A DNA stretch of 63,335 nucleotides, the filler included, from Thraustochytrium aureum (Eukaryota): NCBI GenBank assembly GCA_012862495.1. It is 6 parts of 3 records of this genome, joined end to end, with 100 filler letters (N's around TTAATTAATTAA, not from the genome) between each part and the next. Parts side by side here need not be neighbours in the genome. Positions count along the whole stretch, not along the records: positions 13,587 to 39,608 come from BLSG01000098.1; 5 more parts are not named here. One strand, written 5' to 3'. Below the pieces are notes generated by a model. The model was not told the DNA's origin, made no database searches, and was given only the letters and a program-made list of their open reading frames with translations. The position numbers and the translations under genes are program-made. Below, in pieces: positions 12,979 to 63,335 of the stretch; the stretch's first letter is position 1, and every line of letters starts with the position of its first letter.

Positions 12979-13530
12979 TGTGGCCCAACTTTCGTCGCCG
13001 TCCACCCACTCGCTGCTCGCCAATTGGCGGGCCGACGGCAGCCCGAGCCCTCTCTGGACGCAAGCCGCGGCGAGCCTTTCCTGCAAGTGATCGTTCACTC
13101 CGCGCGCTGGCGAGACTTAGGATGCAGGCAGCTTGGCGAGAGAGCGAGGGCGGCGTTGCGCATGTGCCGACATGGAGTCTGTGCAAGTACGAGTGTCTGG
13201 AACAAGTGCTGCGTCAATCAAAAAGGTGGGCGGCACCCTCTCAGGCTCCCAAGCTGTGTGCTCTGCTCGCGCATTCTCTCGAGCGTGCCTGCTCTGAGCG
13301 TGCTTCTGCAGGCCGACGGCGCGGTGCCTGGTCCGAAGCCAGCCTCTGCGAGGCGCTTTGTTGAGCCCTTCTGAGGTTGGTCGCCCAGAATGGCTCCTCT
13401 CGTGTTGGCCCTCGAAGTACCTACATGTCGTGGCGCGACGCGGAACGCTGGCCGGGCGAGCTCGAAGGGTGAACCCACAGACCTTGNNNNNNNNNNNNNN
13501 NNNNNNNNNNNNNNNNNNNNNNNNNNNNNN

Positions 13531-13542
13531 TTAATTAATTAA
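13531..13542. other. Artificial contig linker TTAATTAATTAA flanked by Ns
   Basis: Six-frame stop linker inside an N block; recurs five times in the window. Confidence 0.97.
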
Positions 13543-13586
13543 NNNNNNNNNNNNNNNNNNNNNNNNNNNNNNNNNNNNNNNNNNNN

Positions 13587-14200: not shown

Positions 14201-14760
14201 CTCGCTCGATCCCTTGCCACAGCGACGCTGTGCCGCGGCCAGGCCACCTGGAACGTGTCGCTGTGCAGCGTTCGGCGTCTAGCTAGATGTACTGCATCCC
14301 ACCACCGGTACGGCGGCGACTCGTTCACTGGGCGGTCGATTCGAAGGCCACCATGAGTTGATCGAAGGCCATCACCATCATTCATTCACTCGTCAAGCCA
14401 CCCATGCCCTGCGCCATCACGGACGGGCAAGTCGCGAGGCCGCTCCATCGCAGGCGGCATCTCGCGCGCAGGGGAGGGGGTCACCAGGAATAACTCGTGC
14501 GGCTCAATCAAGGCGGAGGAGAGAAGAGCCAGAGCTGGGCGGACACATCAATTGGCAGACCGCCATCCAAGGCCTCTCACCTGGTTGCACGTGTCCGCCG
14601 ATTTGTGGGCGTGCTCACGACCACGCAGTCGGCGGGGGCCAACGATCATCGCCACGGCGCCACTTCGTCACAGTATGTGGAGGCGCGCCGAGTTGTGGCC
14701 AAAACGCGCGCGAGGCCCGCAAACCGTGAATTCTTGCTGCCAGCAGGTGCCAGTGCGAAG

Positions 14761-17700
14761 ATGGCCGAACAGGATGGCGAGCTGATGGTCACGATTTTGT
14801 TCGAGGCCTCGTCGGTCGTGGACGGACGGCCTGTCGAGGAGGTCGTAGAAGAAATTGCGAGCTGGCTCGCACGCAACACCGACTGGAGCGTCTGGTTCGA
14901 CGACCGCAAGCCGGCGGCAACCGCTGACCGTGCCGCAACTGCTGACCGTGCGGGGGCCGCCGCGGAGGCTATCGACGACGCGGACGTCATCCTCGCCCTT
15001 TTGACGGACGAGTACGTGCGCAAGGTTAATGCCGGCGCCGAAGACGACCCGTGCAAGCGCGAGTTCAGATACGCAGCCGAGCACAGGGCTGGCCGGATTG
15101 TACCCCTCGTTGCCTCAGATGCGCTCGCCGACCAGCGCAACTGGGACGGCCTGCTCGGACTCGTTCTGGGCCAGGAGATGTTCCAAACGATAAATGCCAA
15201 CTTTGCAGATTCCATGGCGAGCTTGGCAGCCATTATCGAGGGCAAAGCCAGGCACCAAGCCGAGCGACCGCGTGCGGCCTCGGCCGTGGGCGAACAGGCC
15301 AAGCAGCCGGAGTTCTTCACGCTGCCACCCAGTTTAGCCCTTTGCTCACGGCACGGCTCAAAGCCAGCGAGTTCCACGATGGCACGCGCGAGGCGGCCAT
15401 CAAGCACGTTCGAACGTGGTACAAGGACGACCTGCCCAAGAAGAAAAGCCCGGTACTTGGTGTTTATCGGTCCCGCCGGGGTGCGGGCAAGTCGGCCCTG
15501 ATGGGCAAGCTCTGCCAGGAAGCGGCTGTCAGCACGCGCANNNNNNNNNNNNNNNNNNNNNNNNNNNNNNNNNNNNNNNNNNNNNNNNNNNNNNNNNNNN
15601 NNNNNNNNNNCCCAGGCCTAACGAGGAGCTGCGCAAGCTTGACGGGGATGAATTGGACAAGGTCACAGACGTGGGTGCCCTGTTCCAGGCTGTGCTTGCG
15701 GGGCCCTGCAGCGCGGTCGACGCGCCACAGCAGAGCGTCGTGATCGTCTTGGATGCTCTCGACGAGGTCTCTCCTGCTGACAAAGGCGAGTTCATCAGCA
15801 TGATCAAGACCGAGTGGACCAAGCGCGCGCCAGACTGGCTCGGCTTGCTCGTCTCTTCCCGGCCTGAGGACCCGATCCAAAGCGAGCTGGCCGAGTTTCA
15901 GCCGCGCGTCTTTCAGCTCAGCGACGCGGAGAACGAAGCGGACGTCAAGCGGTTTCTGCGCGCCATGCTGGAAAGGTACTTGAGGGATCCCGAACGCGAG
16001 CTCGAAGATGCTGTAGAGCTTCTCGCGGACCGCGCCAAGGGCTTGTTCTTGTACGCGCGGTTCATTGGAGAGCAGCTCGCAGAGTGCGACCGCAGGGCAG
16101 TGACTTTAAAGCAGCTCCTGGAGGACAACGACGCTTTCCCGGAAGGCCTCGACGAAGCGTACCGCACCAACTTGTTGCGGTTTCTCGAGGGCGCGCTCGA
16201 GGGCGACTACGACAAGTATCAGGGCCTGTTCGGCAGCATGGTCGTCGCCCGCGAGCCGCTGCCGTTACGAGTCGTCGGGCGGCTGCTTGGCTTGGATGAA
16301 GCGTCTCTGGGGCGCTTTCTCCGCAAAGCGAGCGCCTTGCTGGACGTCCGCGAGGACTCGGTCGCGTTTATTCACAAGTCGATGAGCGATTTCCTGCTTG
16401 ACGATGAGCGCGCGGCTCAGATCAACGCGCGGGGCAAACCGTACCACGGCCATCGCTTCGCCGTGGACGCCAGCCATGGCCACGCACTCCTCGCGCAAGC
16501 GCTTCAAGCCGAATCGAACGCAACCTCGCGGTTCGCGGCTCGCCACCTGCTGTTTCACCTCCTCAAGACCGAGCAGGAGGGGGCAGTTGCGTCAAAGCTG
16601 CTCGACCTCGCCTGGCTCCTCGTGGTCGCCGAGGCCGGCGCTGCGGCACAGCTCGTGCGGGACGTCCAACTTGCGCAAGGCCTCGGAGCAGACGCCAAGC
16701 TAGCTGCACGTGCTGTTGAGATGGCTGTACAGGCAGTCAGCCGCGACTGGCGTGAGCTTCCTGGCCAACTCCTCGGCCACCTCCCCGAAGCGCACCCACT
16801 CGTCATGCAAGCTTTCGCGTTTCGCCACCCTGATTTTGCCTGGTTGCGGCCAGTATGCGCAGCGCAGGCGCAGGCAGGCGACCCTCTGCGCAAGACTCTG
16901 AATGGGCACGCATTCATCGTGAGCAGCGTAGCCGTTTCACACGACGGCCAGCGCATTGTGTCTGGGAGCTTGGACTACACAGTGCGCGTCTGGGACGCCA
17001 ACACGAGCAAAGTACTGCGCTGCCTCCAAGGCCACATGGTTTCCGTAGACGCTGTAGCCATCTCGCGGAGCGGTCAGCGAATCGTGTCTGGCGGTGGCGA
17101 CTCGACCGTGCGAGTGTGGGNNNNNNNNNNNNNNNNNNNNNNNNNNNNNNNNNNNNNNNNNNNNNNNNNNNNNNNNNNNNNNNNNNNNNNNNNNNNNNNN
17201 NNNNNNNNNNNNNNNNNNNNNNNNNNNNNNNNNNNNNNNNNNNNNNNNNNNNNNNNNNNNNNNNNNNNNNNNNNNNNNNNNNNNNNNNNNNNNNNNNNNN
17301 NNNNNNNNNNNNNNNNNNNNNNNNNNNNNNNNNNNNNNNNNNNNNNNNNNNNNNNNNNNNNGAGACGACCAGCGGATTGTATCTGGCAGCGAAGACGGAA
17401 CCGTACGCGTCTGGGACGCGAACACTGGCCAAGAGCTGGAACGCTTCGAGGGGCACACGCTTGGTGTTAAAGCTGTGGCTGTCTCTCGGGACGGCTTGCG
17501 GATAGTCTCCGGCAGTGATGACGCGACAGTGCGAGTGTGGGACTCCAGCACTGGCCAGCTGGAGCGGCGCCTTGTCGGGCACGCGGCGGCTGTCTGGGCC
17601 GTTGCCGTTTCCCATGACGGCAAGCAGATCGTGTCTGGCAGCCTGGACAAAACCATACGGGTCTGGGACATGAGCACCGGCCAGGTTCTACGGCAGCTGG

Positions 17701-18680
17701 AGGGCCACACAGAAATCGTGTCCGCAGTGGCGCTTTCGCGCGACGGCCAGCGGATTGTCTCGGGCAGCTACGACAAAACTATCCGGGTCTGGGACGCCCA
17801 CACCGGCCAGGAGCTTGCCCGCCTCGAAGGGCACGTCTTACCCGTTTGCGCGGTGGCCCTTTCCAGGGACGGCCAGCGAATAATCTCGGGCAGCAGCGAC
17901 AGCACCGTGCGTATCTGGAACGCCGAAAACCGCATCCAGAAACCGCACGGCCGCCAAGGCCACTCGGATTTGGTGACTGCGGTGGTTCTGACGCGTGACG
18001 GCGAGCGAATCGTGTCCGGGAGCTTAGATCAGACCTTGCGGGTTTGGAACGCCAAAGCGGGCGGCGAGCTTTTCCGTCTGCAAGGTCACACCGACTACGT
18101 AAGGGCATTGGCCCTCTCGCGTGACGACCTGCGGCTCGTGTCCGCCAGCCGTGACAAGACCTTGCGAGTTTGGGACCTCAACACCGGCCGGGAGCTGCGC
18201 TGCCTCCAAGGGCACTCTGAGATCGTATCTGCTGTGGCGCTTTCGTCCGACGACCAGCAAATTGTGTCCGGCAGCGGGGACAAATCGGTGCGCGTCTGGG
18301 ACGCCACGACCGGCAAGCTGCTCCATGTTTTCCATGGACACGACGTCGCGGTTAGCGATGTGGCCCTATCGCGCGGCGGGCAGCAAGTCGTATCCCGCGA
18401 CTATAGTGGCGCCGTTCTGGTCTGGTCGATGGGTTCGGGCCAGGTCCTACAGGATGTGAACGGCGAGGTCGTATTTGACAAGCGCCGACAAGGCCAGCCG
18501 AAGCTGACGAACGGCAGCAGCACAATGTCGATCATGTGCGATGACGGGAGTCTTTCAGCTGGTTTCACATGCGACGCGCGTATCGAGGCATGCGCAGGGG
18601 CTGTGGACGGGTCGTTCGTGGCATTTTTCGACATTTCGCACCGGCCTTGCGTTTTGGAGCTTGTGCGGCGAAAGATGTAG
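14761..18680 (+). CDS. TIR-NACHT-WD40 STAND/NLR-like protein (HET-E/NWD-like); two gaps, apparent frameshifts near 15330 and 15460-15480
   Basis: TIR_2-like N-terminus (WSVWFD..AIDDADVILALLTDEY..PCKREF..RIVPLV). Walker A reconstructs as VFIGPAGAGKS, Walker B is VVIVLDALDE, followed by LLVSSRP, GLFLYA and FIHKSMSDFL. At least 11 visible GH..WD repeats of 42 aa. Confidence 0.9.
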
Positions 18681-19495
18681 GCGCATGGCCCAGCACGAAT
18701 CTGCGACACGAGTGCGACGGGCACCCCGGCCTTTGTGTGCTCTCTAGCTAGCTAGAGTACCACCTAAAGAACGACGTGGTGGCCATGAGCCGAGCAGGCG
18801 CAGCGGGCTGCAGCACCGATCCACCGACCTCCTGAGTGAATGCCAATCCCCCGTGCGAGCAAACAACCAAGTGACCGTCAAGCCGCCGGGCGCTGCGCAA
18901 CCGCTCAGGCCCGCATGCGCACCCAGACTCGCATCGTCGTGCCGAGTTGTTGCGGGGTCGTCACGAAGTGTTTTTCATTCATCTGTGGCGAACGAACGAA
19001 CAACCGCTATCTTTCCTTCCCGCCGGCAGAAACAGCAGCAGCAGCAGCAGCAGAGCCCGAACGCGTCCTGTGCGCCGCGACGGTCGCGCAGCGCCGTCCC
19101 GGGCTCGACTCGCTCGATCGGTGGAGCGGGCCCGCAGCTTGGAGTGCCACGCAAGCCNNNNNNNNNNNNNNNNNNNNNNNNNNNNNNNNNNNNNNNNNNN
19201 NNNNNNNNNNNNNNNNNNNNNNNNNNNNNNNNNNNNNNNNNNNNNNNNNNNNNNNNNNNNNNNNNNNNNNNNNNNNNNNNNNNNNNNNNNNNNNNNNNNN
19301 NNNNNNNNNNNNNNNNNNNNNNNNNNNNNNNNNNNNNNNNNNNNNNNNNNCCCTGGGCCGTCGTGCGGCGCGCGGAGCCGCCCCGGCTCGGCGGGCTGGT
19401 AGCGCTGCAGGCCACGCCCGGCAAGGGGGCCGTCCACTGGTCGAGGTCGTGCGCGGGCAGCTCGGGCCGCAGGTCGGCGGCCCTCCGCCGCTCTG

Positions 19496-22400
19496 ATGGA
19501 CCGCACGGAGCTCCAAAGATGGCTCCACGACTCGCACGTACCGACTGTGATGTTGCTCAGCACGGAGAAGGCCAACGAAATCGCGGAAACGCGCAACTGC
19601 CTCAGCTTGGCGGAGCTCCTGAGCCCGTTCGGCAAGACCAGCGGGCAGGTGCCGTTCCGCACCCCGGCGCACACTTATGGGCTCCGCAGCTTTCGCGTCC
19701 AATTCGTGGCCGCGGGCGAGCTTGAACCCGTTCCGCTTGAGCTCGCCGAGGCAAGGCTGCAGCAAGTCGCCCACCGCGGCGCGCCCGCTGGAAGCGTGGA
19801 AGAGATGCTCTACAACGGGCCAGAAGACAACGCAGACGTTCTGCGCTTTGTCCAGAAGAACCGCGAGCAGCCTTTTTATCGAGCGTATCGGGCCGAGCTC
19901 GCTCGCGCGCTGCAGCATGACGAGACGCAAATGTTTGGCCAGCCCGTCGGCTGTCTCGCGGTCGTGTCCTCAACCGACCAGGACCCTGTCGGGTGCTTTG
20001 GGCAACTGTTCAGCCCGCACTTTCTGCCGAGCGGGTTCCAAAAGGGCCAGTACGACCCCCAGATGCGCCGCTTTTGCCTCATCATCCACGATCGAAGCGA
20101 CCCGGCAAGCGCCGCGGTCGACCTGGACGCACTTCGGCGCCTGGAGCACTCTGCTCCTGGCCACACCTTCCACGTGGTTGAGCTCGACAACGACTTTGAC
20201 ACGCGCCAGGACGCGAGCGAAAGCCGCAGCAAGGAACAGACCGATCGCGCTGCTATGTGGGCCCCCTTCGTGGGGCGCTCTTTCTTCGCTGCGCACGCCA
20301 GGCGCCCCCCCGACCGGCCCCTCGGCTACAACCTGACGAACGGGGACCTCGAAACCCTCTCGCGCTTTGCAAGCTCGCTCATGGTTTCTGGTGTGCTGCA
20401 GGCGCTCGAGTCGCGCCTATTCACGCTTGATACACGGGTCACCGAGAAGCGCAAGGGCCTGCGCAACACGGTGCGCCGATTATGGAGACCGTCGACCAGA
20501 TCGGGCGCGGGCGGGCCGAGCGACGGCACTGCGGAGGGCGGCGCGGGGTCTGCGGTGGGCGGTGCGGCTGGGGCTGGGGCATCGCGCGCAAGGGTCCGCT
20601 ACCTGCACGACTCGATCGAGGCGCACATCCGGCTGCTAGCCGACCTCGCGTTTATGGTCCAAGACTACGACATGGCGCTGTCCAACTACCGCATCGCTCG
20701 GGAGGACTTTAACAGCGACAAGTCGCTGCTGCACCACGGCGCAGCCCTCGAAATGATGGCTCTCGCCAACTTTATGAAGGGCGGCGACCACCAAAAGTCG
20801 CTTGGGTACTTGGTCCAGGCGCAAACATCGTTCCGCGACGCAATTGTGGCAGCTCACCAGGTCAGTGACGAGGCGGAGCGGGGCGCCCGAACCTCGCAGG
20901 CCGCACGGCTCTTGACCAACTCGGCCATGCTGTACGCCGACCTGGTGCTCGCATCTGGCACTGGAGCGCCGCGGCTTTTTGGCGAGGCGATCGAGCAGCT
21001 TGCTCGCGCCTCGCTTGAGGAGACTCCTTTGGCGGCGGCTGTCCTCCTCGAGCAGACAGGCATGTTTCTGCTGTTTCAGCAGCTTGCGGCCACGGGCAAG
21101 TGGACCTACAGCGACGCGAGATCTGGCAAAGGCCCCTCGCCGGAGGCGCTCGAAGAATCTGGCAGCATCACGCGTCGCTTGCGCAAGTTTGGCTTTCACC
21201 TCGTCATGGCCAGCCGCCTCTACGCAGACTGCGGCAACCTCGAGCATGCCATGCGGTGCCTTGCGACTGCCAAGCGCCTCTACGGAGAGCGCTGGCGCAC
21301 ATTAACGACCACATCGACACGTTCCTAGGCGAGCACGCTCTGCAGCTCGGCGATACCCAGCACGCGCTTCCGCTCTGGACAAACGTCCTGCGCCGCGGCC
21401 AGCAGCCACCCGCCAAGCAGGCCAAGCTCCTCAGCGACCTGCGCCGGTGTCTCGCTGAGGCCGCCGCTCACGGTCCCGCCGTCGAAAACTGGGATTTCTC
21501 TGTCCCGTGCGTCCAAGACGAGAGTATCGCGGTTCTCGACCAGCAAAACGCCTCCATCATCCCTCCGGTGTCTGCCACAGGACTCCGCCTAGAGGAGCCA
21601 GAGGCACGATCTGTCGCAGCCGATCCGGGGATTGAGGAGCGGGCCGAGGCGCTCCGCGAAGCGCAGAAACAGACCTCCTCCGAGTCTCGACGCCGTGAGG
21701 AGTCTCTGTGGGCAGAGCAGTGTCCCACCTTGCCGCCTCAGCTCCAGGCCCGCCAGGCGTTGCGGATGCAAATGTGACGGGGCGCGCCTTCCGCCGGGGC
21801 CGGGGCCGGGCGGCTGAAGCTGTGCCAGACACCTGCTATGTGGGCGAACCCCTATTTGTGGACGTGCCACTCCGCAACCCTTGCTCGGTGCCGCTCGACC
21901 TTGCCAGCGCGTCGCTGGTCGCAGAGATAATTGATGCAGAAGGCAGCAGACTCGGGGCGAGCGATGGAGCCATGGAGGCCCCAGTCGTCGCCGCTGTCGT
22001 GCTCGAGCCCGGGGCGACCGTCGCAGTGCGGTTTAGTGTAGTTCCGCTCATCGATGGCCGCCTCAGGATCATTGGCGCGACATGGAGCCTTGTTGGCCTG
22101 GGCCCAGTCGTTCGCGAGTTTGTCTTGAAGGGGGCGCGACTAAACGAAACCAAGGAGGATCGCGTTGCGGGGGCGCGCGCGCAAGACCTCCGGCTGCAGC
22201 GGATCGTAAAGAGCAGCTCGGCTTGGCTGGGCGCCGAGCTCGACGTGCCAGACGCCACTTTCGAGGGCCNNNNNNNNNNNNNNNNNNNNNNNNNNNNNNN
22301 NNNNNNNNNNNNNNNNNNNNNNNNNNNNNNNNNNNNNNNNNNNNNNNNNNNNNNNNNNNNNNNNNNNNNNNNNNNNNNNNNNNNNNNNNNNNNNNNNNNN

Positions 22401-23880
22401 NNNNNNNNNNNNNNNNNNNNNNNNNNNNNNNNNNNNNNNNNNCAAGTCGACGATGACCGGCCCAATTGTGGTCGCGTGCAGCTTGCCGTGCGTGTGTATC
22501 GGGGCCGACTCGAGCGAGTTCGACTATGCGGTGCGCAAGTCTGCGCCATTACTCGACGATGCCGGAACGGTGGTCCAGCTCCCGGTGACCGACCTCGAGC
22601 CGGGCCTGCCGGTCAGCGTACCGGTTTGCCTGCGCGTTCCTGCGACTGCGGGGCTCACCATTGTTCGACTCCTCCTGCGCTACAGCGACGGAGCCGAAAC
22701 GCGGCATCTGCGCCTCGCCGTCAAGCTGCGCGTCCGCGCATCTGTTCGCGTCACTGCAGAGTGCTTCGCCTCGCCGGTGGTCGCAGATGAGCACGTTCTG
22801 TCCGTTTCGGCGCGAAATGTCTCGCGCACTGCGATGGCAACGTTCAGGATGACGCATCTCACTGCCCTGAGCCAGGCGTGGCAGATTGCGCACTTAGGAC
22901 CAGCCCGGGATTGGGCGCTCGTGCAACCGGGCGAGACAGTCACGCTCTTGGCAACTGTGCGCCGCCGCGATTCGCAGAGCACGCCGAGGTCGACGCTCGG
23001 TCTTGGGCCCGACAAGGACCCTGCAAGCCAAGAGAGTACTGACGAGGACGAATCTGCCGTGACGGAGGCATGCAGCGCGCACTTTGCGTGCCTCGAGAAC
23101 GCGCGGTCTGTGCTTGCTGCCCGAGAGGCTGCCCGCGAAAAGCACCTTCGTTTTAAGGACATGCTGCAGGCGGAAGGCCGCCTTCCCGTCTCCATCCAAG
23201 AGATCCGCCGACTGAACAGGGCAGGCGGCGGGGAAGAGGATGCCGAGCTCGCCTTCCTGAACCGTCTCGAGCGCCGCAGCAAGCCTGCCGAGGACGAGCC
23301 AGCGCCGCCAGCCGAAGACTCGCTCTATTTTGGAGAGCGCGCGTCAAGGCTGCACCTGGTCGTTGCGTGGTCGTCCGCAGATTATATGAGCCGTGGGCAG
23401 ACAGAGCTCCTCAACTTGCCTGTCTTTGAGAAGCGGCAGCCCTTCGCACTGGCGCTCGCGTACTGCCGCGCGACGACGAGCCGTGTCGTCGCTGCCACCC
23501 TCACGGTGACCAACGCATCGGAGAAGCAGACGGGTCCCGTCGTCTTGCACGCGGACCGCGCGGCGGGATTCATCTGGGTCGGGCTCACTCGCACCAAGGT
23601 ACCGCCACTTGACCCGGGCGGGCGTTTCGCGGTCAGCCTCAAGGCGGTTTTTCGCGGCTCGGGGCAGTTTGAGCTCAACACGTTTCGGATCGTCTGTGGC
23701 GAGGCAGCGTACAGCTCGTCCAACAGCTTCTTCATCACCGTCCACAACCACGTTAATCGCCGCGCCGACCAAGCGGAAGCCAAGGACGGGGAGCTGGACG
23801 GCGTCCAGGCTTCTGCCGGCGCTCAGGACCCTTCACCGCTTCCCAGCGGACGCGAGCACCTTGAAGCGACCCACGGTCCG
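19496..23880 (+). CDS. TRAPPC8: TRAPP III subunit Trs85/TRAPPC8 (frameshifts near 21290 and 21770; gap; 3' end in gap)
   Basis: N-terminal NCLSLAELLSPFG, QPVGCLAVVSS, IRLLADLAFMVQDYDMALSNY, AAVLLEQ, RKFGFHLVMA, and a C-terminal Ig-like region (VGEPLFVDVPLRNP). Confidence 0.85.
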
Positions 23881-24502
23881 NNNNNNNNNNNNNNNNNNNN
23901 NNNNNNNNNNNNNNNNNNNNNNNNNNNNNNNNNNNNNNNNNNNNNNNNNNNNNNNNNNNNNNNNNNNNNNNNNNNNNNNNNNNNNNNNNNNNNNNNNNNN
24001 NNNNNNNNNNNNNNNNNNNNNNNNNNNNNNNNNNNNNNNNNNNNNNNNNNNNNNNNNNNNNNNNNNNNNNNNNNNNNNNNNNNNNNNNNNNNNNNNNNNN
24101 NNNNNNNNNNNNNNNNNNNNNNNNNNNNNNNNNNNNNNNNNNNNNNNNNNNNNNNNNNNNNNNNNNNNNNNNNNNNNNNNNNNNNNNNNNNNNNNNNNNN
24201 NNNNNNNNNNNNNNNNNNNNNNNNNNNNNNNNNNNNNNNNNNNNNNNNNNNNNNNNNNNNNNNNNNNNNNNNNNNNNNNNNNNNNNNNNNNNNNNNNNNN
24301 NNNNNNNNNNNNNNNNNNNNNNNNNNNNNNNNNNNNNNNNNNNNNNNNNNNNNNNNNNNNNNNNNNNNNNNNNNNNNNNNNNNNNNNNNNNNNNNNNNNN
24401 NNNNNNNNNNNNNNNNNNNNNNNNNNNNNNNNNNNNNNNNNNNNNNNNNNNNNNNNNNNNNNNNNNNNNNNNNNNNNNNNNNNNNNNNNNNNNNNNNNNN
24501 NN

Positions 24503-24554
<52 letters not shown>

Positions 24555-24555
24555 G
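24503..24555 (-). repeat. (CAA)n microsatellite in the 3' part of an LRR-gene intron
   Basis: About 17 ttg units adjoining the N gap. Confidence 0.9.
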
Positions 24556-24691
24556 GATGATTGGAGGACGGCAGCGCGTCGCGTTGCGTTGCGTTCGTGC
24601 GTCAGCGAGCGAGAGAAAGCAGGTGCGGCCGTGCAAGCTGTCGTATGAAGGAACGTGTTCGGCGAACCGCACTGCGTTCTTAACGACTTAC

Positions 24692-26110
24692 AGCAGCCCA
24701 GTCAGCGTCGAGTTGGTCTCGAGCGCTTTGCCGAGCGCGGCTGCCCCTGCATCGGAGATGTTGCTCTGGGAAAGACTGTTGTTGTTGGGCAGCGCGTTGT
24801 ATTGCGTTCGTTTGTCCGCTAGCGTTAGCGAGCAATGAAAGTGAGGGGGATTCACTCACGCGTCCAAGTACTCGCAGAGAGGCAGGGGAGGTGAGGGGAA
24901 GGAGCGCACTCGGCACACCGCACTGCGTCCCCGCAACAACGTACGCGAGGAAAGTCAGCGTCGAGTTGGTCTCGAGCACTTTGCCGAGCGCGACAGCCCC
25001 TGCATCGGAGATTGGGTTGAAACCAAGACTGTCGTTGTCGTTGCACGAACCGAGCACCGCAGCGCGTGCGTTGAGTTCGTTCGTTAGCGAGTGAGCGAGT
25101 GAGAAAGGGGGGAGGTTCGCGCGAGAGCATTCGGCGCACCGCACTGCGTCCCTGTAACGACTCACCCCAGCGCAACCAGCGTCGAGTTGGTCTCGAGCAT
25201 TTTCGCGAGCTCAGCAGCGCCTGTATGGGAGATTTCGTTTTCACCAAGACTGTCTTTTTTGTTGCATGAACGGAGGACGGCAGCTCGTTCGTTAACGAGC
25301 GGCGAGAAAGAAAGCATGTGCGGCCGTGCAAGCTGTAGATAGAGAGGGAGGAGTGATGAAGGAGCGCGTTCGGCAAACCGCATTGTATCCCTGCAACGAC
25401 TTACGCCAAGCTAGTCAGCGTCGAGTTTGTCTGGAGCGCCTTGCTGAGCGCGGCAGCTCCTGCATCGGAAATGTGATTGTCGTTAAGGCTGTCGTTGGAG
25501 GGCGAACGGAGGACGACAGCGCGTTGTGTTGAGTTCGTTCGTTAGCGAGTGAACGAGCGAGAATGGGGGCAGGTTCGCGAACGCATTCGGCACACCACAC
25601 TGCGTCCCTGCAACGCCTTACCTGAGCTTCGCCAGCGTCGAGTTGGTCTCGAGCGCCTTGGCGAGCACGGCAGCTCCTGCATCGGAGATCGCGTTGTTGT
25701 CAAGACTGTGGATGAAGTTGTCAGTTCGGCCACTACTTTGACCACGACAACGGCTGCTCTGCTAGGAACGGGCTTTCGCACGGGCTTGGCAGACCGCACA
25801 GCGGAGCTCTTCTGCGCCGTCTTGCAGAGACTTACTGTATCTCCTTTACCGTCTTGTTGCTTTTGAGGACCTTGGCCAGCGCGTCAACGCCTGCGTCGCC
25901 AATTCTTCGGCGATCAAGGCTGTCGATTCGACAAATCGGGCGCGAGCGTTGTCAGTCTTCAGCCCCGCAGCATACCTTGCCAGCCCCGCAGCAAACCTTG
26001 CCAGCCCCGCAGCAAACCTTGCCAGCCAGCCACCTTGCAACTCACTCGATCTCCTTCTCGCCGCGCTTGATCGCGGCCAGCGCCTCGTCCACGTTCTTCA
26101 CCTTGACCAT
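24692..26110 (-). CDS. Multi-exon ribonuclease-inhibitor/NLRC3-type LRR protein: exon 1 26110-26046, then 84-nt exons 25919-25836, 25705-25622, 25488-25405, 25249-25166, 25028-24945 and 24775-24692; probably continues into the gap at 23881-24502
   Basis: All six cassettes are exactly 84 nt, bounded by CAG acceptors and GTAAGT/GTAAGG/GTGAGT/GTACGT donors, all phase 2. The spliced product is open: MVKVKNVDEALAAIKRGEKEID-LDRRRIGDAGVDALAKVLKSNKTVKEIH-LDNNAISDAGAAVLAKALETNSTLAKLS-LNDNHISDAG..TSLA-LGENEISHTG..VALG-LGFNPISDAG..TFLA-LSQSNISDAG..TGL. Confidence 0.92.
25960..26030. repeat. 21-bp tandem repeat (cagccccgcagcaaaccttgc, about 3 copies) in LRR intron 1
   Basis: Visible near-identical direct repeats. 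Confidence 0.85.
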
Positions 26111-27147
26111 CCTGCTCCTGCGCCGCTGCCGCTTGTCTTGTCGCCCACTCGCGCGTCGCAATCGGTGTCTGCCTCAGCCAGTGCGGCACAAGTTCAAGTA
26201 GAAACCGTACTTGGCACAAGCAAAGTGGAAGAAACTCCGTGGTGTTAGTGGGTTACCTACGAGAAAGTCTAGGAGTTCAGCTGCCTGCTTAGGCAGCCAG
26301 TGACGGTACAGTACATCGCTGCGCGCGACGGAGACCCCGTGCTGAAGAGCCCCCAGGCAGTCCCATAGGAACCAGACTGGCACCCGAAAGTCTGAAGATG
26401 ACGAAGAACCTGACGGATAATGGCCTTGCGATGCTGACACGAAACGTCCTGTGACAAACTCAAGCTTGTTTACGACGACCTTTGTTCGACCTTTGTTTAC
26501 GACCTTCGGACTCGAAGCAACCTCTTGGTGGAGCAGCCGGAGATAACCAGCTCAAGCCTGCGAGCCCAGCCACCAGTGGCCTCGATCACGAAGGGTAGCA
26601 AGGCCTTGCCAGAGAGCGACACGTCAGCTGCATGCTTGTTGTTATTTCAGCTTCACGAACCACCGCGGCGCGGCCCAGCAGGAACGGGACCCTGCGCTCG
26701 AGGACCATCGAGCAGTCTGTTCCAGCTCCCAATGCGAATCCTCCCTGTGCACGGTGGTCGTGGTGGCGCGACCGCCAAAGAAAGGTGAAACAAACGGCAC
26801 TGCCAAACAAACCTAGATGAGCAGGTCAGGCACAAGCCAGCGCTCCTGAACCCCTCCGACTTGAATCCATCCTCCACATCCCAGCCACCGCACCCCCACA
26901 CGGCACGCCAGCCATCAACGAACCAACCATCAAACCCCCGAGACGACTCGCACAAACCAAACCGTCAGGAAGTCTATTCTCCGCGACGCAACAAAAAACG
27001 CCACAAAGGAAGTTCACGAAGCTTCCTCCAAGAGGCAATAGAAAAACGAAGCCAAAAAAGGCTAAAAAACAGAAGCCAAAAAGAGAGCGTGCGCGGAACA
27101 GGTGCAAAAGCAGCAGACCCCGAACGCGGACAAGCGCGCGGAGCACG

Positions 27148-27279: not shown

Positions 27280-30105
27280 ATGCCCGTGAGCAAGTTGTTC
27301 TGTGGTGTCCATGGTGGAGCTCCGAGGAGCGCCAAGGCGTCCGAGGGCGAGGAGCGCCCGCAGAGCGCCGAGGCCAGGGCGAAGAAGAGGCTGTCGGAAA
27401 GGGTCAAGTCGGCCGCCGTGGAGATGATTCGAAAGTCGAGCGTGGCGGCGGGAGCGCAGAGCGGCGGGTTTTCTGCTGCGCTGGAGAAGGTGACGCCGGC
27501 CGTGGTCGTGCTCGAGACAAACTACTCGCGCGCGTTCGAAGGCGAGACGGCCGGGTCCTCCACCGCGACCGGGTTTGTTGTCGACAAGAAGCGCGGCATC
27601 ATCCTGACAAACCGGCACGTCGTGACGAACGGCCCCGTCCGCGCGCACGCAAAGTTCATCAACAAGGAAGAGATCCCCGTGGAGGCAATCTACGCCGACC
27701 CGGTGCACGACTTTGCCTTTTTCCGGTTCGACCCCGCAGCGCTAAAGTTTATAGATGTGGTAGAGATCGCTCTGGCCCCGAGCCGCGCCCGCGTCGGACT
27801 CGAGATCCGCGTCGTCGGCAACGACGCCGGCGAGCAGCTCCAGATCTTGGGCGGCACGCTGGCCCGGCTGGACCGCGACGCGCCCGCCTACTCGGGCGGC
27901 GTGTACTCGGACTACAACACGTTCTACTACTCGGCTGCCAGTAGCACGTCGGGCGGGTCGAGCGGCAGCCCCGTCGTCGACGCCGAGGGGTACGCGGTCG
28001 CCCTCAACGCCGGCGCTCGCACGGGCACCGCCTCGTCCTTTACCTCCCCCTGCACCGCGTCGTTCGCGCACTCGACTTTATCCGCAAAGACCAGCCGGTG
28101 CCCCGGCGCACGGTCCAGGCCGTCTTCACCCACGAGTCGTTCTCCGAGGTGGAGCGCCTCGGCCTGCCTGAAGAGGTCCAGGCCAAGGTCCGTGCGCAGT
28201 CGCCCGAAGCAACAGGCATGCTCGTTGCGAGCGTGATGGTGCCGTCTGGGCCTGCGGCCAAGGCCGGCCTCCAGGTCGGCGACATTTTGGTCAAGCTGAA
28301 CGGCACACTCTTGCACGAGTTTGCCCCGCTCGAGATGGCCATGGACGACTCCCTCTCGCTGACCATGGAGGTGCAGCGCGGCGCGATCTCGCACACGATC
28401 ACGGTGAAAACGGACGACCTTCACGAGCTGGCGCCCCGCGAGTTTATGGAGATCAGCGAGGCCATCGTGCACCCGCTCAGCTACCACCAGGCGCTGGCGT
28501 CGCAGCTCCCGATCGGAGCGGTCGTCGTCGCGACTCCGGGCTATATGCTTCGGCGCGCCGGCCTGGGCCGCGACAGCGTGATCTTGGCGGTGGGCGACGA
28601 GGAGACGCCCGACCTCGAGTCCTTTTCGCGCGCCATCACAAAGTACCCCGACCTTGCCAAGGTATCCTTGCGCACCACGCACCTGAGCGACCGGTTCCGC
28701 GAGGCTGTCATCAGCCTCGAGGTGGACCGCACCTGGTTCGTGTGGCGACACGCGCGGCGCACCTTCAGCAACGGGGTCATCGCTTGGCAGTACACCGACC
28801 TGCCGAAGCCCTCGCTGGAGCTTCCAAAGCCGCACAGGCGCATCCGGATTCGGTCGAACGAGGCCGCCGTGCTGTTCATGGTGCGCTTCAACTCGCCCTT
28901 CTACTTGGACGGCCTCTCGGGGTCGTCCTGGGTCGGCGCCGGCGTGCTGGTGGACGCCCAGGAGGGCTTGGTCGTGACGGACCGCAACACGGTCCCCAAC
29001 GCGCTCGGCAACTGCTCGGTGACGATTGGCGACACTTACTCGGTGCCTGCCCAGGTCGTCTTCGTTCACCCGACGCAGAACTTTTCGCTCCTCAAGTTTG
29101 ACGCCGCCCTGCTCGAGTTTGACGTCGACGACGCGGTGACCCGGCTCGAGGCGGAGCAGTCCCCCGTCAAGCTGCGGCCCGGCATGACCACCGTCTTTGC
29201 CGGATACACGCGCCAGCTCAATATCATCAAGCAGCGCTGCGAGGTCAACCTGGTGGACCGCCTCGTCGCCCTTCCCGCCGGACCCGCCGCGCTTCACGGC
29301 GCGCAACCAGACCGTGATCCATCTCGACAAGGTGGTCGGCAACCTCGGGGGCGTGCTGCAGGACGACGAGGGCCTCATCCAGGCGTTTTGGTTTCCTTTT
29401 CGCTGCGAAGCAGCACGGGCGAAAACGTCGAGGCCGCCGTCGGGATCCCCGCGGAGATCATCTTTGACACCGTCAACAAGCTGCGCGGCAACTTTGTTGG
29501 CAAGGAGAATGTGGTCGCGACGCTGGGCGTCGACCTCAGCGTTGTGCACATCGCCCAGGCTTCTGCGGCCATGGGGCTCAGCGAGGCCTGGGTCGAAGAC
29601 CTCGCCGCAGCCAACCCGGAAAACACGCACGTCATTAGTGTGCGGACTGTGATGGCCGACTCGCCCTCCTCGGACAAGATCAAGGCGGGCGACCTGTTGC
29701 TCGCGGTGGACGGCGAGCCGCTCACAGACCTCCCGCAGCTCGACCTCTCCCTTGGCGAGAAGGACGCGGTGGAGCTCACCTTGCTGCGCAGTCTCAAGGA
29801 GATCACTATCTCGGTGCCAGTGACGCGCATTCCGGCCTGCGCCACGACGCGCGTCGTCATTTTCGCGGGCATGACGCTGCAGGCCCCGCACCCAGAGGTC
29901 GCCTTCACGGGCCACCTCCCCGAGGAGTGCAAGGGGTCGGGGGTTTACTGCACCTTTTGGTACTTTGGTTCGCCAAGTGACATGTACCAAATGGAGGCCA
30001 CGTCGTTCATCATCGGCATCAACGAGAAGGACACGCCCACGCTGGACGACTTTCTCGACGCCGTGTCCGACATAAGCGATGACGAGTTCATGCGCGTGCG
30101 CCTCG
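27280..30105 (+). CDS. NMA111: Nma111/Ynm3/Deg7-type HtrA serine protease with duplicated protease-PDZ architecture (frameshifts near 28043, 29280 and 29400; 3' end in gap)
   Basis: Catalytic triad motifs [30 protein letters not shown] and [11 protein letters not shown] ([14 protein letters not shown]); second degenerate protease domain ([19 protein letters not shown]). Confidence 0.9.
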
Positions 30106-39608: not shown

Positions 39609-39652
39609 NNNNNNNNNNNNNNNNNNNNNNNNNNNNNNNNNNNNNNNNNNNN

Positions 39653-39664
39653 TTAATTAATTAA
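39653..39664. other. Artificial contig linker
   Basis: TTAATTAATTAA in an N block. Confidence 0.97.
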
Positions 39665-40503
39665 NNNNNNNNNNNNNNNNNNNNNNNNNNNNNNNNNNNN
39701 NNNNNNNNGCGAAGCCCTGCAAGCTCGCAGAGTCCACGCGCGGATCGGCCGCGGTCCTGCTCGAGCCTGCTCTTCGCTCTGAAGCCGCGAGCGCCCAAGC
39801 TCTTGCTCCTGCTAGTATTGCTCCTGGTGCTCGCGCTCGCGCTCGCGCTCGGGCCGAGGGACTCGAGCAAGGGCGTCTGGGCGTCCGGCGCATCGCTTTG
39901 GGGAAAAAAAAACAAAAAAAACTCGTTTCGAAGCCGTGCTGTGTCCGACTTGGAGACCATCATGATGGAGTTGACCCCGTTGGACCTTTGCCTTGCGGAT
40001 TGGGTGCGTGCTGGACAGGCAGGATTGGTGCCCGTGGTCTGCAGGCGGGTGGGTCGTGGCGGGCGCGGGCTGGTGAGATCAGTGTGGTTCGGCAGTGCCG
40101 TTGAGATGTTTTTTTGGTTTGAAAAGTTGCGCGTTTTCACACTTGTCCAAAGCGTGGCGCATCAACACGCCGACAGCATCGAGTACCAAGTCGTGCTCAT
40201 GCCAAATAGAGCACATCAAGCTCACGTTCTTCGACAACAAAACACTTCTTTCCATGGCGCAGAAGGCCTCGTCGCTTGGGTTCAGAAGGGCGGAACACAG
40301 CGGTCCTGGGGTACTCGACCACATGCCAACGACGGATCGATTCCACCATGCTCAGATCGTTCCCGCAAAGTGGATTCTGTTTCCGCGGTCTGATCTGGTC
40401 TTCTTGGTCGGACGAGGAGGCACTTGATGGAGCTGACAGTGTCACTGCACAACGCCACGACAGCACTTCGATTCTCGTTGTTGTGTTGGCGAAAGGCGGA
40501 ATC

Positions 40504-48075: not shown

Positions 48076-48119
48076 NNNNNNNNNNNNNNNNNNNNNNNNN
48101 NNNNNNNNNNNNNNNNNNN

Positions 48120-48131
48120 TTAATTAATTAA
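48120..48131. other. Artificial contig linker
   Basis: TTAATTAATTAA in an N block. Confidence 0.97.
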
Positions 48132-48234
48132 NNNNNNNNNNNNNNNNNNNNNNNNNNNNNNNNNNNNNNNNNNNNTTCCACTGTGCGGCTTCCGCGGCAT
48201 TCCTTTTGTTCTCCTCACATCCTCCACAGCAACT

Positions 48235-57915: not shown

Positions 57916-58734
57916 GATGCGAAACTGCACGGTATGGACGCGGCTCTGACCAGTGACGAGTGCGCTGACGAGTGGACGCTCGAGGGTGGCGGCGCGAGAA
58001 CAACGTCTGCCGCAAGTGGGGGCCGGGAGCAACGTTCTCCAACTCGAGTCGAGAACGCCAGCTTCTACAGACGTGGATGTCGTTTGCGTGGCGGGATGTG
58101 GAGTTCGACGCGGAAGAGCAAAGAAGCGCGGCTGACGGTGTGAGCCTTTCGCGAACACGCAGTTGTACCGGACGCGGCTCGAGCGCTTGGCCGATCGTCG
58201 AGTTCGACACGGCGCAGTCACTGGTGCTCGATGCCTCTAGAGGTACTGAAGCAGCGTACAACAAGACAACGGCCAAGGAATCGAGGTCGGCGAGAGCTCA
58301 GCCCGCGCTATGACGCGCGCGCCCGATGAACTGATGAAAAGGGATTATGCCAATCTCAAGGCTTGACCTTGTTCATTCGCTAGGGTACTCTACGTCTTCG
58401 TTGGGACCGGCGACGCAAATCAATCTGCGCATGAGCAACTCGATATGAGAAATTCCTCCGTCAGAGTCACCACGGCCCGGTGGCCCGCAACGCCCAGACG
58501 CACTTGAAACGGCCAGGCGAACCTGCAATCCTCGACGCACTTGAAATAGGCGATTGTGTCCCCGCCCTCGGTCGCGCGGAGGAAGACAGGGTCTTGGCAC
58601 CAACTTCTGTTCCCGAGGTCGCACGGGATGCGGAAGGCTGGGCGCACAGGGTTTGCACGCGTCTCGAGGACATTCTCTACATCTCGCGAGNNNNNNNNNN
58701 NNNNNNNNNNNNNNNNNNNNNNNNNNNNNNNNNN

Positions 58735-58746
58735 TTAATTAATTAA
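58735..58746. other. Artificial contig linker
   Basis: TTAATTAATTAA in an N block. Confidence 0.97.
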
Positions 58747-58790
58747 NNNNNNNNNNNNNNNNNNNNNNNNNNNNNNNNNNNNNNNNNNNN

Positions 58791-62026: not shown

Positions 62027-62070
62027 NNNNNNNNNNNNNNNNNNNNNNNNNNNNNNNNNNNNNNNNNNNN

Positions 62071-62082
62071 TTAATTAATTAA
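62071..62082. other. Artificial contig linker
   Basis: TTAATTAATTAA in an N block. Confidence 0.97.
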
Positions 62083-62127
62083 NNNNNNNNNNNNNNNNNN
62101 NNNNNNNNNNNNNNNNNNNNNNNNNNA

Positions 62128-63335
62128 GCTCCCCGAAACGACACGGTCGCCGTCGGGCGAGAAGGCCACGGAATTGACCTCAGATTCGTGTCCCTCGAGC
62201 CGCCGGAGTTCTTGCCCCGATTTGGAATCCCAGATTCGGACTGTCCTGTCCCAGCCCCCTGAGACGATGCGGTCGTCGTCGCGCGAGAGGGCCATGGCCA
62301 AGACACCGGATGTGTGTCCCTCGAGCCGCCTGAGGTCCTGCACCGATTTCGCGTCCCAGATACGGACGGTATTGTCTTTGCTCGCCGAAACGATGCGGTC
62401 GCCGTCGCGCGAGAGGGCCACGGCCGTAACAAACGCGGTGTGCCCATCGAGCCGCCGGAGCTCCTGCCCCAACTTTACGGTCCAGATACGGATGGACTTG
62501 TCCCTGCTTCCCGAAACGATGCAGTCGCCATCGCGCGAAAAGGCCACCCCCACGACGCTACGATTGTGTCCCTCGAGACGCCGTAGCTCTTGCCCTGATG
62601 TCCCGTCCCAGATCCGGACGGTCGCGTCGTCACTCCCTGAAACGATACGGGCGCCGTCGCGCGAGAGCGCCACGGCCAAGACATTCTTGGTGTGTCCCTC
62701 AAGCACCCGGAGCTCCTTGCCCGAATTGGCGTCCCAGATACGGACAGTCTTGTCGTCGCTCCCTGAAACGATGCGGTCGCCTTCGCGCGAGAGGGTCACG
62801 GAATTAACATCAGCTGTGTGTCCCTCGAGCAGCCAAAGCTCGCGCCCCGATTTCGCGTCCCAGATACGGACGGTCTTGTCCTCGCTCCCCGATACAATAC
62901 GGTTGCCATCGTGCGAGAGAGCCACGGCCAATACAAAACCGGTGTGTCCCTCGAGCCGGCGGAGCTCCTGCCCCGACCTGACTTCCCAGATCCGGACGGT
63001 CTTGTCGTAGCTTCCCGAAATTATGCGGTCACCTTCGCGCGAGAAAGCCACGCCACCTACCCAAGCGGTGTGGCCCTCGAGCCGCCCGAGTTCTAGCCCC
63101 GAATTGGCATCCCAGATGCGGACGGTATTGTCGTAGCTTCCCGATACGATACGGTCGCCGTCGCGCGAGAGGGCCACGGCACAGACCCAATTAGTGTGTC
63201 CCTGGAGGATCTTGCGCAGTGGGTCGCTTGCTGCCGTGAGCGTGGCCTGCACCGGGCGAAGCCAGCTAAAGTCGTGGTGGCGGAACGAGCGCGCTTGAGC
63301 ACCAGCGGGTGCTCCTCGGGGAGCCGGCCGATGAG
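62128..63335 (-). CDS. Partial NACHT-WD40 family paralogue: nine near-identical 126-nt WD40 repeats (the last truncated)
   Basis: The linker LIGRLPEEHPLV..FRHHDFSWLRPVQATLTAASDPLRKILQGH matches LLGHLPEAHPLV..FRHPDFAWLRPVCAAQAQAGDPLRKTLNGH of the gene at 14761; 42-aa GH..WD repeats follow. Confidence 0.9.

Follow-up and report, generated by a model that had tools for sequence, protein, structure and literature searches.

A leucine-rich repeat gene of Thraustochytrium aureum built from single-repeat exon–intron units, with a variable predicted binding face

The genome of the thraustochytrid Thraustochytrium aureum contains a leucine-rich repeat (LRR) gene that was expanded by tandem duplication of a unit consisting of an exon, which encodes a single repeat, and the adjacent intron. 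In our assessment, held with moderate confidence, this spliced gene, grown by copying of such units, probably encodes a small cytosolic LRR-only binder, the predicted concave face of which is likely selected for new specificities, most probably in non-self recognition or defense. The gene comes from BLSG01000098.1 and lies within the window, that is, the whole stretch of 63,335 nucleotides that was analyzed (six parts of three records of assembly GCA_012862495.1, with filler letters in between); all positions are those of the window.

Tandem duplication of an exon–intron unit

The LRR gene is located on the minus strand and extends from the ATG at 26110 to the edge of an assembly gap at 24502. 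The sequence-only reading of this DNA had proposed a gene with at least seven introns and six consecutive 84-nt phase-2 exons, and a script run on the window confirmed this structure. The joined reading frame over exons 1–7 is open for 189 codons, and every junction is in phase 2. Exon 1 (26046..26110, minus strand, as are all features of this gene; 65 nt) carries the putative start codon, a predicted N-cap helix and the beginning of the first strand; no earlier ATG is present, and an in-frame stop precedes the start codon by about 21 codons. Intron 1 (25920..26045, 126 nt), which contains a 21-nt tandem repeat, is followed by exon 2 (25836..25919), the divergent first LRR, and by intron 2 (25706..25835, 130 nt). 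The LRR cassettes proper are exon 3 (25622..25705), exon 4 (25405..25488), exon 5 (25166..25249), exon 6 (24945..25028) and exon 7 (24692..24775); in the latter, which is possibly the last repeat, Ser replaces the consensus Asn. They are separated by intron 3 (25489..25621, 133 nt), intron 4 (25250..25404, 155 nt), intron 5 (25029..25165, 137 nt) and intron 6 (24776..24944, 169 nt), and introns 1–6 are all of the GT..AG type. Intron 7 (24503..24691, at least 189 nt) starts with the donor GTAAGT at 24691 and runs through an (AAC)n tract into the gap of 622 N (23881..24502), so that its acceptor is outside the window.

Exons 2–7 are all exactly 84 nt long, and each encodes a single 28-residue repeat of the ribonuclease inhibitor (RI) type (LRR_RI, Pfam LRR_6), with the 28–29-residue pattern LxxLxLxxNxIxxxGxxxLxxxL and the opposite helix. 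When single exons were compared with Pfam, one of the three tested, exon 4, matched LRR_6, at an E value of 0.0045 and with a score that falls short of the Pfam cut-off. In every 84-nt exon, the boundary falls between the two central leucines (LxxLx/LxxNxI); the exons are of equal length, symmetric and delimited at a fixed position of the repeat, as in other one-repeat-per-exon genes.

Introns 3–7 form a single sequence family. After trimming of the splice signals, all 10 pairs score z 5.9–25.4 against shuffled sequences, at 66–84% identity, whereas in the same comparison none of the 11 pairings that involve introns 1 or 2 exceeds z 2.6. The closest relationships are those between introns 3 and 5 (84%) and between introns 4 and 7. 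In line with this division, exons 3–7 share 65–77% of their nucleotides with one another, and exon 2 shares only 52–58% with this group. What was amplified is thus the exon together with its intron, 217–253 nt in total, propagated by tandem duplication, as the sequence-only reading had it; the homology of introns 3–7 and the alignment of whole units agree on this point. Because introns 1 and 2 do not belong to the family, the units were apparently added after an older cap that consists of exons 1 and 2. With a phase-2 intron at the identical point of the beta-strand in each 28-residue repeat, gain or loss of a whole unit preserves the frame, and copying would have occurred by unequal crossover or slippage between homologous units.

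Diversification of the predicted concave face

The x positions of the LxxLxLxxNxI segment face outward on the concave, ligand-binding surface of RI-type LRR proteins. Six such codons, in the strand and the following loop, were fixed beforehand from the consensus and compared among the five repeats encoded by exons 3–7. At codon positions 1 and 2, these codons differ in 84 of the 120 pairwise comparisons (0.70), against 51 of 440 (0.12) for the remaining 22 codons. Divergence is 0.20 (71/362) in the intron 5' ends that abut the x codons and 0.30 in the invariant-residue codons beside the variable ones; the third positions of the concave codons are also divergent (31/50, 0.62). In neutral simulations at p 0.25–0.45, a value of 0.70 was reached in at most 0.00024 of the runs. 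A home-made codon model on a star tree, with five repeats and recombination ignored, gives omega of 24–36 at the x codons and 0.34–0.39 elsewhere, with a likelihood ratio test (LRT) statistic of 31–35 against omega=1; gene conversion that homogenizes the scaffold would inflate these omega values.

Diversifying selection on the predicted binding face is hence well indicated, as judged from five repeats and a simple codon model. The residues flanking the splice junctions had been quoted correctly in the sequence-only reading, and its proposal that the variation sits at the concave x positions, with an excess of amino acid changes, was borne out by the counts as well as by the codon model. The sign of diversifying selection that characterizes one-repeat-per-exon LRR arrays is accordingly present in this gene, for five repeats under a simple model that ignores recombination. 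In a structure model of the homologue P0154, built from a single sequence (mean pLDDT 66.5), the beta-strands fall on the x-bearing segment. The combination of a constant scaffold with a variable face recurs in all seven unrelated LRR arrays checked (coral-type, fungal and unnamed); the pattern is therefore common and leaves an immune role unproven.

Ordinary repeat expansion under relaxed constraint would produce variable repeats without any diversifying selection, the exposed sites drifting and gene conversion evening out the scaffold of a structural or regulatory RI-type protein, for example, an axonemal one similar to LRRC34 or RSP15. The very uniform synonymous sites of the scaffold across the repeats fit such an account, and so does the presence of LRRC34 and radial spoke protein 15 (RSP15) among the top PDB sequence matches, which are RI-class LRRs (8 sequences). 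In log-likelihood, a model with a fast local rate and omega=1 trails the selection-only model by no more than 2.9 units. However, once the local rate is free, freeing omega as well gives a further gain in fit (LRT 6.1, p 0.014); given that the introns and neighboring invariant codons diverge only at 0.20–0.30, drift alone should not bring the x codons to 0.70; and there is no conserved orthologue among the matches listed, and many divergent paralogues. We consider relaxed constraint an improbable explanation.

Transcripts and exon order

Contigs from four of the seven listed sequencing runs were compared with the window, namely, X1 (DNA), X2 and X5 (presumed RNA, from one study) and X3. Record 9 of X2 (688 nt) and record 22 of X5 (633 nt) join exons 3-4-5-6-7 in genomic order at about 98–99% identity, and they contain the 3' 39 nt of exon 3. 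The sequences that these contigs skip are 133, 155 and 137 nt long and correspond to introns 3, 4 and 5; a skip of 172 nt with three letters between its sides equals intron 6 plus three exon bases. Both contigs extend past exon 7, by 312 nt (X2) and 258 nt (X5), and intron 7 has no depth in either run. Thus, the predicted junctions between exons 3 and 7 are confirmed by two presumed RNA runs of one study. Junctions 1, 2 and 7 do not appear among the joints listed, 15 out of 27. All three runs, X1, X2 and X5, differ from the window at base 25224 (Thr to Ala in exon 5), which reflects either an allele or an assembly error.

Alternative splicing, which the sequence-only reading had envisaged, received no support: the two near-identical spliced contigs are both in genomic order, and there is no near-identical exon-skipping joint among the same 15 of 27 joints; because contigs lose rare variants, skipping may still occur. 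The other skips and back-jumps, mostly with foreign or undefined letters between their sides, are read as paralogues. The DNA run X1 covers 24832–25985 in three collinear pieces of about 99% identity that span exons 2–6.

Tests for exchange among the repeats gave a similar picture. Of the 210 pairs formed by 21 informative sites, 97 are incompatible, and the introns group (3 with 5, 4 with 7) in a manner that has no counterpart in the exons, for which the splits are 56, 36, 35, 34 and 46. Yet, the site-clustering test for mosaicism within the gene is not significant for these 21 sites (p 0.39 and 0.76), so that recurrent mutation explains the incompatible sites as well as exchange does. Inverted, orphan or intronic exon copies were not found, with two weak inverted pairs that look like chance, and no further cassettes were detected in the 63-kb window by blastn. 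An intact reading frame runs through exons 1–7, and the window has no orphan cassette that would recall somatic assembly of the VLR type.

These observations bear on the possibility that the gene is an active generator of diversity, in which the repeats are reassorted within and between genes, either through alternative splicing or because the homologous introns recombine frequently in the germline or in somatic cells, as proposed for brown-algal ROCO genes. The symmetric phase-2 exons and homologous introns would permit reassortment, the discordant affinities of introns and exons together with the incompatible site pairs are compatible with it, and the intron family is common to paralogues (see below). 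Nevertheless, the order of exons 3–7 in both spliced contigs, the lack of a skipped form among the joints listed, the collinear X1 pieces, the clustering values and the lack of the inverted or intronic exon copies that are the hallmark of Ectocarpus all argue against such activity, and we regard this account as unlikely. The design would allow exons to be actively shuffled or alternatively spliced, and the present data support neither; the part of the earlier claim of a diversifying recognition system that stands is unit duplication with variation of the face, not splicing or shuffling as the generator.

A family of paralogous cassettes

At 85% likeness, 226 contigs of X1, 120 of X2, 58 of X5 and 27 of X3 match the window, including those on the repeat upstream of the gene. 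Among the matches listed (12 rows out of 36), at least eight distinct intron-free segments encode paralogous repeats. The xx dipeptides of these segments, read by eye, are CG, GR, EW, AG, NN, GS, VN and RS, all different from one another, and none of them recurs among the five dipeptides of the window gene (DN, ND, GE, GF and SQ). Loose contig ends carry the 5' end of a homologous intron in seven contigs of X1 and one of X2, and a single X3 contig shows a CAAC-rich acceptor end followed by a new repeat; in one X1 row, the donor position is the same but the intron is unrelated. Paralogous pieces of exon 1 are present in X1 and X3. Thus, the wider family of cassettes that had been predicted exists, and some of its members carry the same intron family. 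The size of this family is soft because the paralogous RNA segments may derive from intronless genes or from a related organism. We rejected summed depth as a measure of copy number: the summed contig depth in X1 is 125–2152 on exon cores and about 3.6 on introns (a difference of about 35- to 600-fold), a mere hint, given that depths pool all contigs and other organisms may contribute.

Searches for LRR homologues with 27-position profiles (71 matches, 6356 matches of which 150 were listed, and 15 matches) retrieved generic RI/NLRC3-type proteins; among the matches listed, no named one is from a thraustochytrid and the best identity is 59%; PF13516 is present in all named homologues. The N-cap found no specific match among the 217 proteins checked. 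With such short profiles and limited candidate lists, these results are weak evidence for the absence of an orthologue. Among viral contigs, none of 80 pattern stretches was confirmed, and there were no exact matches.

Under the tandem-copying reading that we favor, point substitutions would then diversify the six exposed positions with the helix scaffold kept fixed, the pattern itself being observed and the selection suggested by the five-repeat codon model. Birth and death of paralogous genes in the germline, many in number, is a more likely source of the diversity than splicing of one gene. A more far-reaching proposal, to which we give only slight credence, is that this unicellular, intron-poor and virus-hosting marine protist maintains a genome-wide pool of hundreds of interchangeable LRR cassettes, with the shared intron family as a recombination handle. 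Dozens of expressed genes would then exchange binding surfaces, amounting to a germline combinatorial immune repertoire, and other plankton would have arrived at this design anew with different intron families.

Product of the gene and its neighborhood

Downstream of the LRR gene, a convergent TRAPPC8 ORF (22444–23880) is still open at 23880, where it enters the gap; therefore, the 622 N must hold both the TRAPPC8 stop and the end of the LRR gene, presumably with its last exon or exons. Upstream, a divergent gene for an HtrA/PDZ protease starts approximately 1.1 kb away. Exon 1 is hydrophilic and includes no signal peptide. No N-terminal nucleotide-binding domain was found; a stop closes the reading frame some 21 codons before the ATG, although a further upstream coding exon is conceivable. 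A ROC-COR domain after the LRRs is unlikely because the gap, the length of which is an estimate, is shared with the end of TRAPPC8 and, together with the additional 258–312 nt of transcript, leaves little room. The closed upstream frame, the short distance to the protease gene, the shared gap and the hydrophilic exon 1 all suggest that the gene probably encodes an LRR-only protein of the cytosol, with about 190–300 residues at the estimated size of the gap.

A role of this protein in recognition or defense is likely, judging from its sequence. The label of receptor under which it had been introduced fares less well: recognition is a likely reading, but there is no signal peptide and little room for a nucleotide-binding, ROC-COR or kinase domain. 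On its own, the protein might serve as a sensor, a decoy or an inhibitor; alternatively, it could work in trans with proteins of the NACHT/TIR kind, such as are encoded in its neighborhood. It might instead be an inhibitor or effector in an arms race, not a sensor, and would then bind viral or other foreign enzymes tightly, as RI does, or be aimed at host or prey targets. The LRR-only architecture, like that of ribonuclease inhibitor, and the diversifying concave face would suit such a function; the lack of a signal peptide in exon 1 argues against secretion, and sequence data do not separate this role from that of a sensor. We view an exclusively inhibitory or effector function as rather doubtful.

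Repeated insertion of a mobile intron (introner) into an LRR gene that lacked introns and already consisted of repeats would explain why introns 3–7 form one sequence family, but can be dismissed as highly improbable, given that all insertions would share the same codon position and phase, that the non-homologous introns 1 and 2 are in the same register, and that no member of the intron family lies outside the array in the 63-kb window (all four motif matches fall within the array, and blastn found none beyond it).

Most genes of the window had been said to have 0–2 introns. Ten neighboring ORF stretches, nine of them with Pfam matches, are stop-free over 1314–2877 nt, which is consistent with this claim, as a survey of long open stretches and not a gene-by-gene count, and is in line with an intron-poor genome. 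The poly(A) polymerase encoded nearby is 65% identical to that of Hondaea fermentalgiana and 61% identical to that of Mucochytrium quahogii, with at most 44% identity to the other full-length named matches, which by itself points to a thraustochytrid host. The TRAPPC8 (19403–22268, plus strand) and HtrA/PDZ protease (approximately 27945–28233, plus strand) coding regions contain frame changes without an N gap, owing either to short introns or to indel errors.

Directly upstream of the LRR ATG lies a repeated element (approximately 26190–26900, minus strand) that attracts many contigs, with high summed depth on 26230–26400. The motifs in its broken frames resemble, to our eye, the end of a non-LTR retroelement that carries the endonuclease, a guess on our part; no Pfam families were matched in the three frames tested. 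The element may supply the promoter of the LRR gene or may have displaced it.

Relationship to other one-repeat-per-exon systems

Exon-modular LRR genes have been characterized in brown algae. In the accounts of Ectocarpus and Saccharina drawn on here, parts of PMC3341825 and PMC11378527, ROCO and other LRR loci contain 72-nt phase-2 exons with one repeat each, selection on the concave face, shuffling and splice variants, and loci that have such exons but encode LRRs only are considered a possible reservoir. The T. aureum gene resembles the ROCO, LRR-kinase and LRR-only loci of these algae, as far as these parts describe them, in its single-LRR exons of phase 2, in the signs of positive selection on the concave face, in belonging to a multigene family and in its stramenopile host. 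It differs in that its exons encode 28 RI-type residues in 84 nt, against 24 amino acids in 72 nt, and are thus not type I exons, and in that it has no signalling domain in view, whereas the algal exons described in these parts are fused to ROC-COR or kinase domains. By exon type, the gene is not a ROCO gene; its C-terminus is beyond the window. Inverted exon copies in introns are a hallmark of Ectocarpus in the part of PMC3341825 used here, and the algal loci, as depicted in these accounts, show inverted and inactivated intronic exons, traceable recombination and splice variants; in contrast, the T. aureum gene shows no inverted copies and one splice order, and its introns are short (126–169 nt) and mutually homologous. 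Within the scope of the same accounts, its closest brown-algal parallel is the type II exons, which are under selection and not shuffled (PMC3341825; PMC11378527).

Vertebrates provide the second comparison. According to the portion of PMC6642158 considered, most NOD and NLRC genes have one 28-aa LRR per exon, NLRP exons are 171 bp long, and skipping of NLRP3 exon 5 is documented. On this partial account, the NOD and NLRC genes share with the T. aureum gene one 28-aa RI-class LRR per exon, the fixed boundary in the beta-sheet and the preservation of frame. The vertebrate NOD, NLRC and NLRP proteins described there are NACHT receptors; unlike them, the present gene has no NACHT domain in view and belongs to a unicellular protist, and the homology that its introns retain indicates young duplications. 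NLRC3-like arrays of corals and Mortierellaceae, classed by database names, contain the same type of repeat (at most 59% identity) with the same constant scaffold and variable face, but belong mostly to long NACHT-LRR or other fusion proteins, unlike the probably LRR-only product described here.

In a metagenome scan that covered 10 of 64 parts, three of 120 loci (L069, L091 and L109) proved to contain RI-LRR exons that agree with those of the window gene in both register and phase; the other 117 had no LRR match, two DNA-level matches among them being non-LRR by eye. The exons called by the script in these three loci are 84, 84, 81 and 114 nt long, and more exons of 81–84 nt can be recognized by eye. 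Their nine called introns resemble one another (36 of 36 pairs at z 2.9–20.4), but all 36 comparisons with introns 3–6 of the window gene remain at z 2.6 or below, so that they constitute a different intron family; the repeat consensus is different as well. The three loci belong to other eukaryotes; L069 is 1083 nt long and on the minus strand, and the introns of the three loci have many GTGCG donors and one GC donor. In addition, the database fragment P0351 reads like one such LRR exon running into a phase-2 intron.

Both the design and the selection pattern are already known; it is the thraustochytrid lineage that is newly reported to possess such genes. A search of mostly non-subscription literature found no paper title on one-repeat-exon LRR genes in thraustochytrids. 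Exon-modular diversifying LRR genes are thereby extended to a unicellular stramenopile, in which the still alignable cassette introns offer an internal, nearly neutral standard of divergence and document the order of duplications. Thraustochytrids can be grown in culture, and two titles among the references of PMC12768974 name Aurantiochytrium as a host of mirusviruses; the question raised by the brown-algal genes, whether one-repeat-per-exon diversity arises via splicing, recombination or birth and death only, therefore becomes testable in a microbe.

Other repeats and assembly features

The (AAC)17 microsatellite at 24503–24555, in which intron 7 meets the gap, has grown from the CAAC-rich 3' end common to the cassette introns and is probably the cause of the gap. 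An X3 contig of 151 nt extends for 64 nt past 24556 into this tract. Five other gaps (13487–13586, 39609–39708, 48076–48175, 58691–58790 and 62027–62126) each consist of 44 N, 12 bases and 44 N, a scaffolding spacer artefact.

Two arrays of WD40 repeats are present in the window. On the plus strand, at 14494–18677, matches to TIR_2, to NPHP3_N (NACHT-like) and to a winged helix are followed by at least ten WD40 repeats of 126 nt, in a TIR-STAND-WD40, NLR-like gene that is broken by gaps and frame changes and that we take to resemble the fungal HNWD non-self receptors. The second array (62127–63333, minus strand) also consists of 126-nt units, with eight full repeats that are 65–85% identical (mean 73%). 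Alignment columns 12, 13, 15, 31 and 33 are highly variable in this array, with 4–6 different residues among the eight repeats, and are reminiscent of the selected top-face positions of fungal HET-E. This array suggests a broader repertoire of repeat-based recognition in the same genome.
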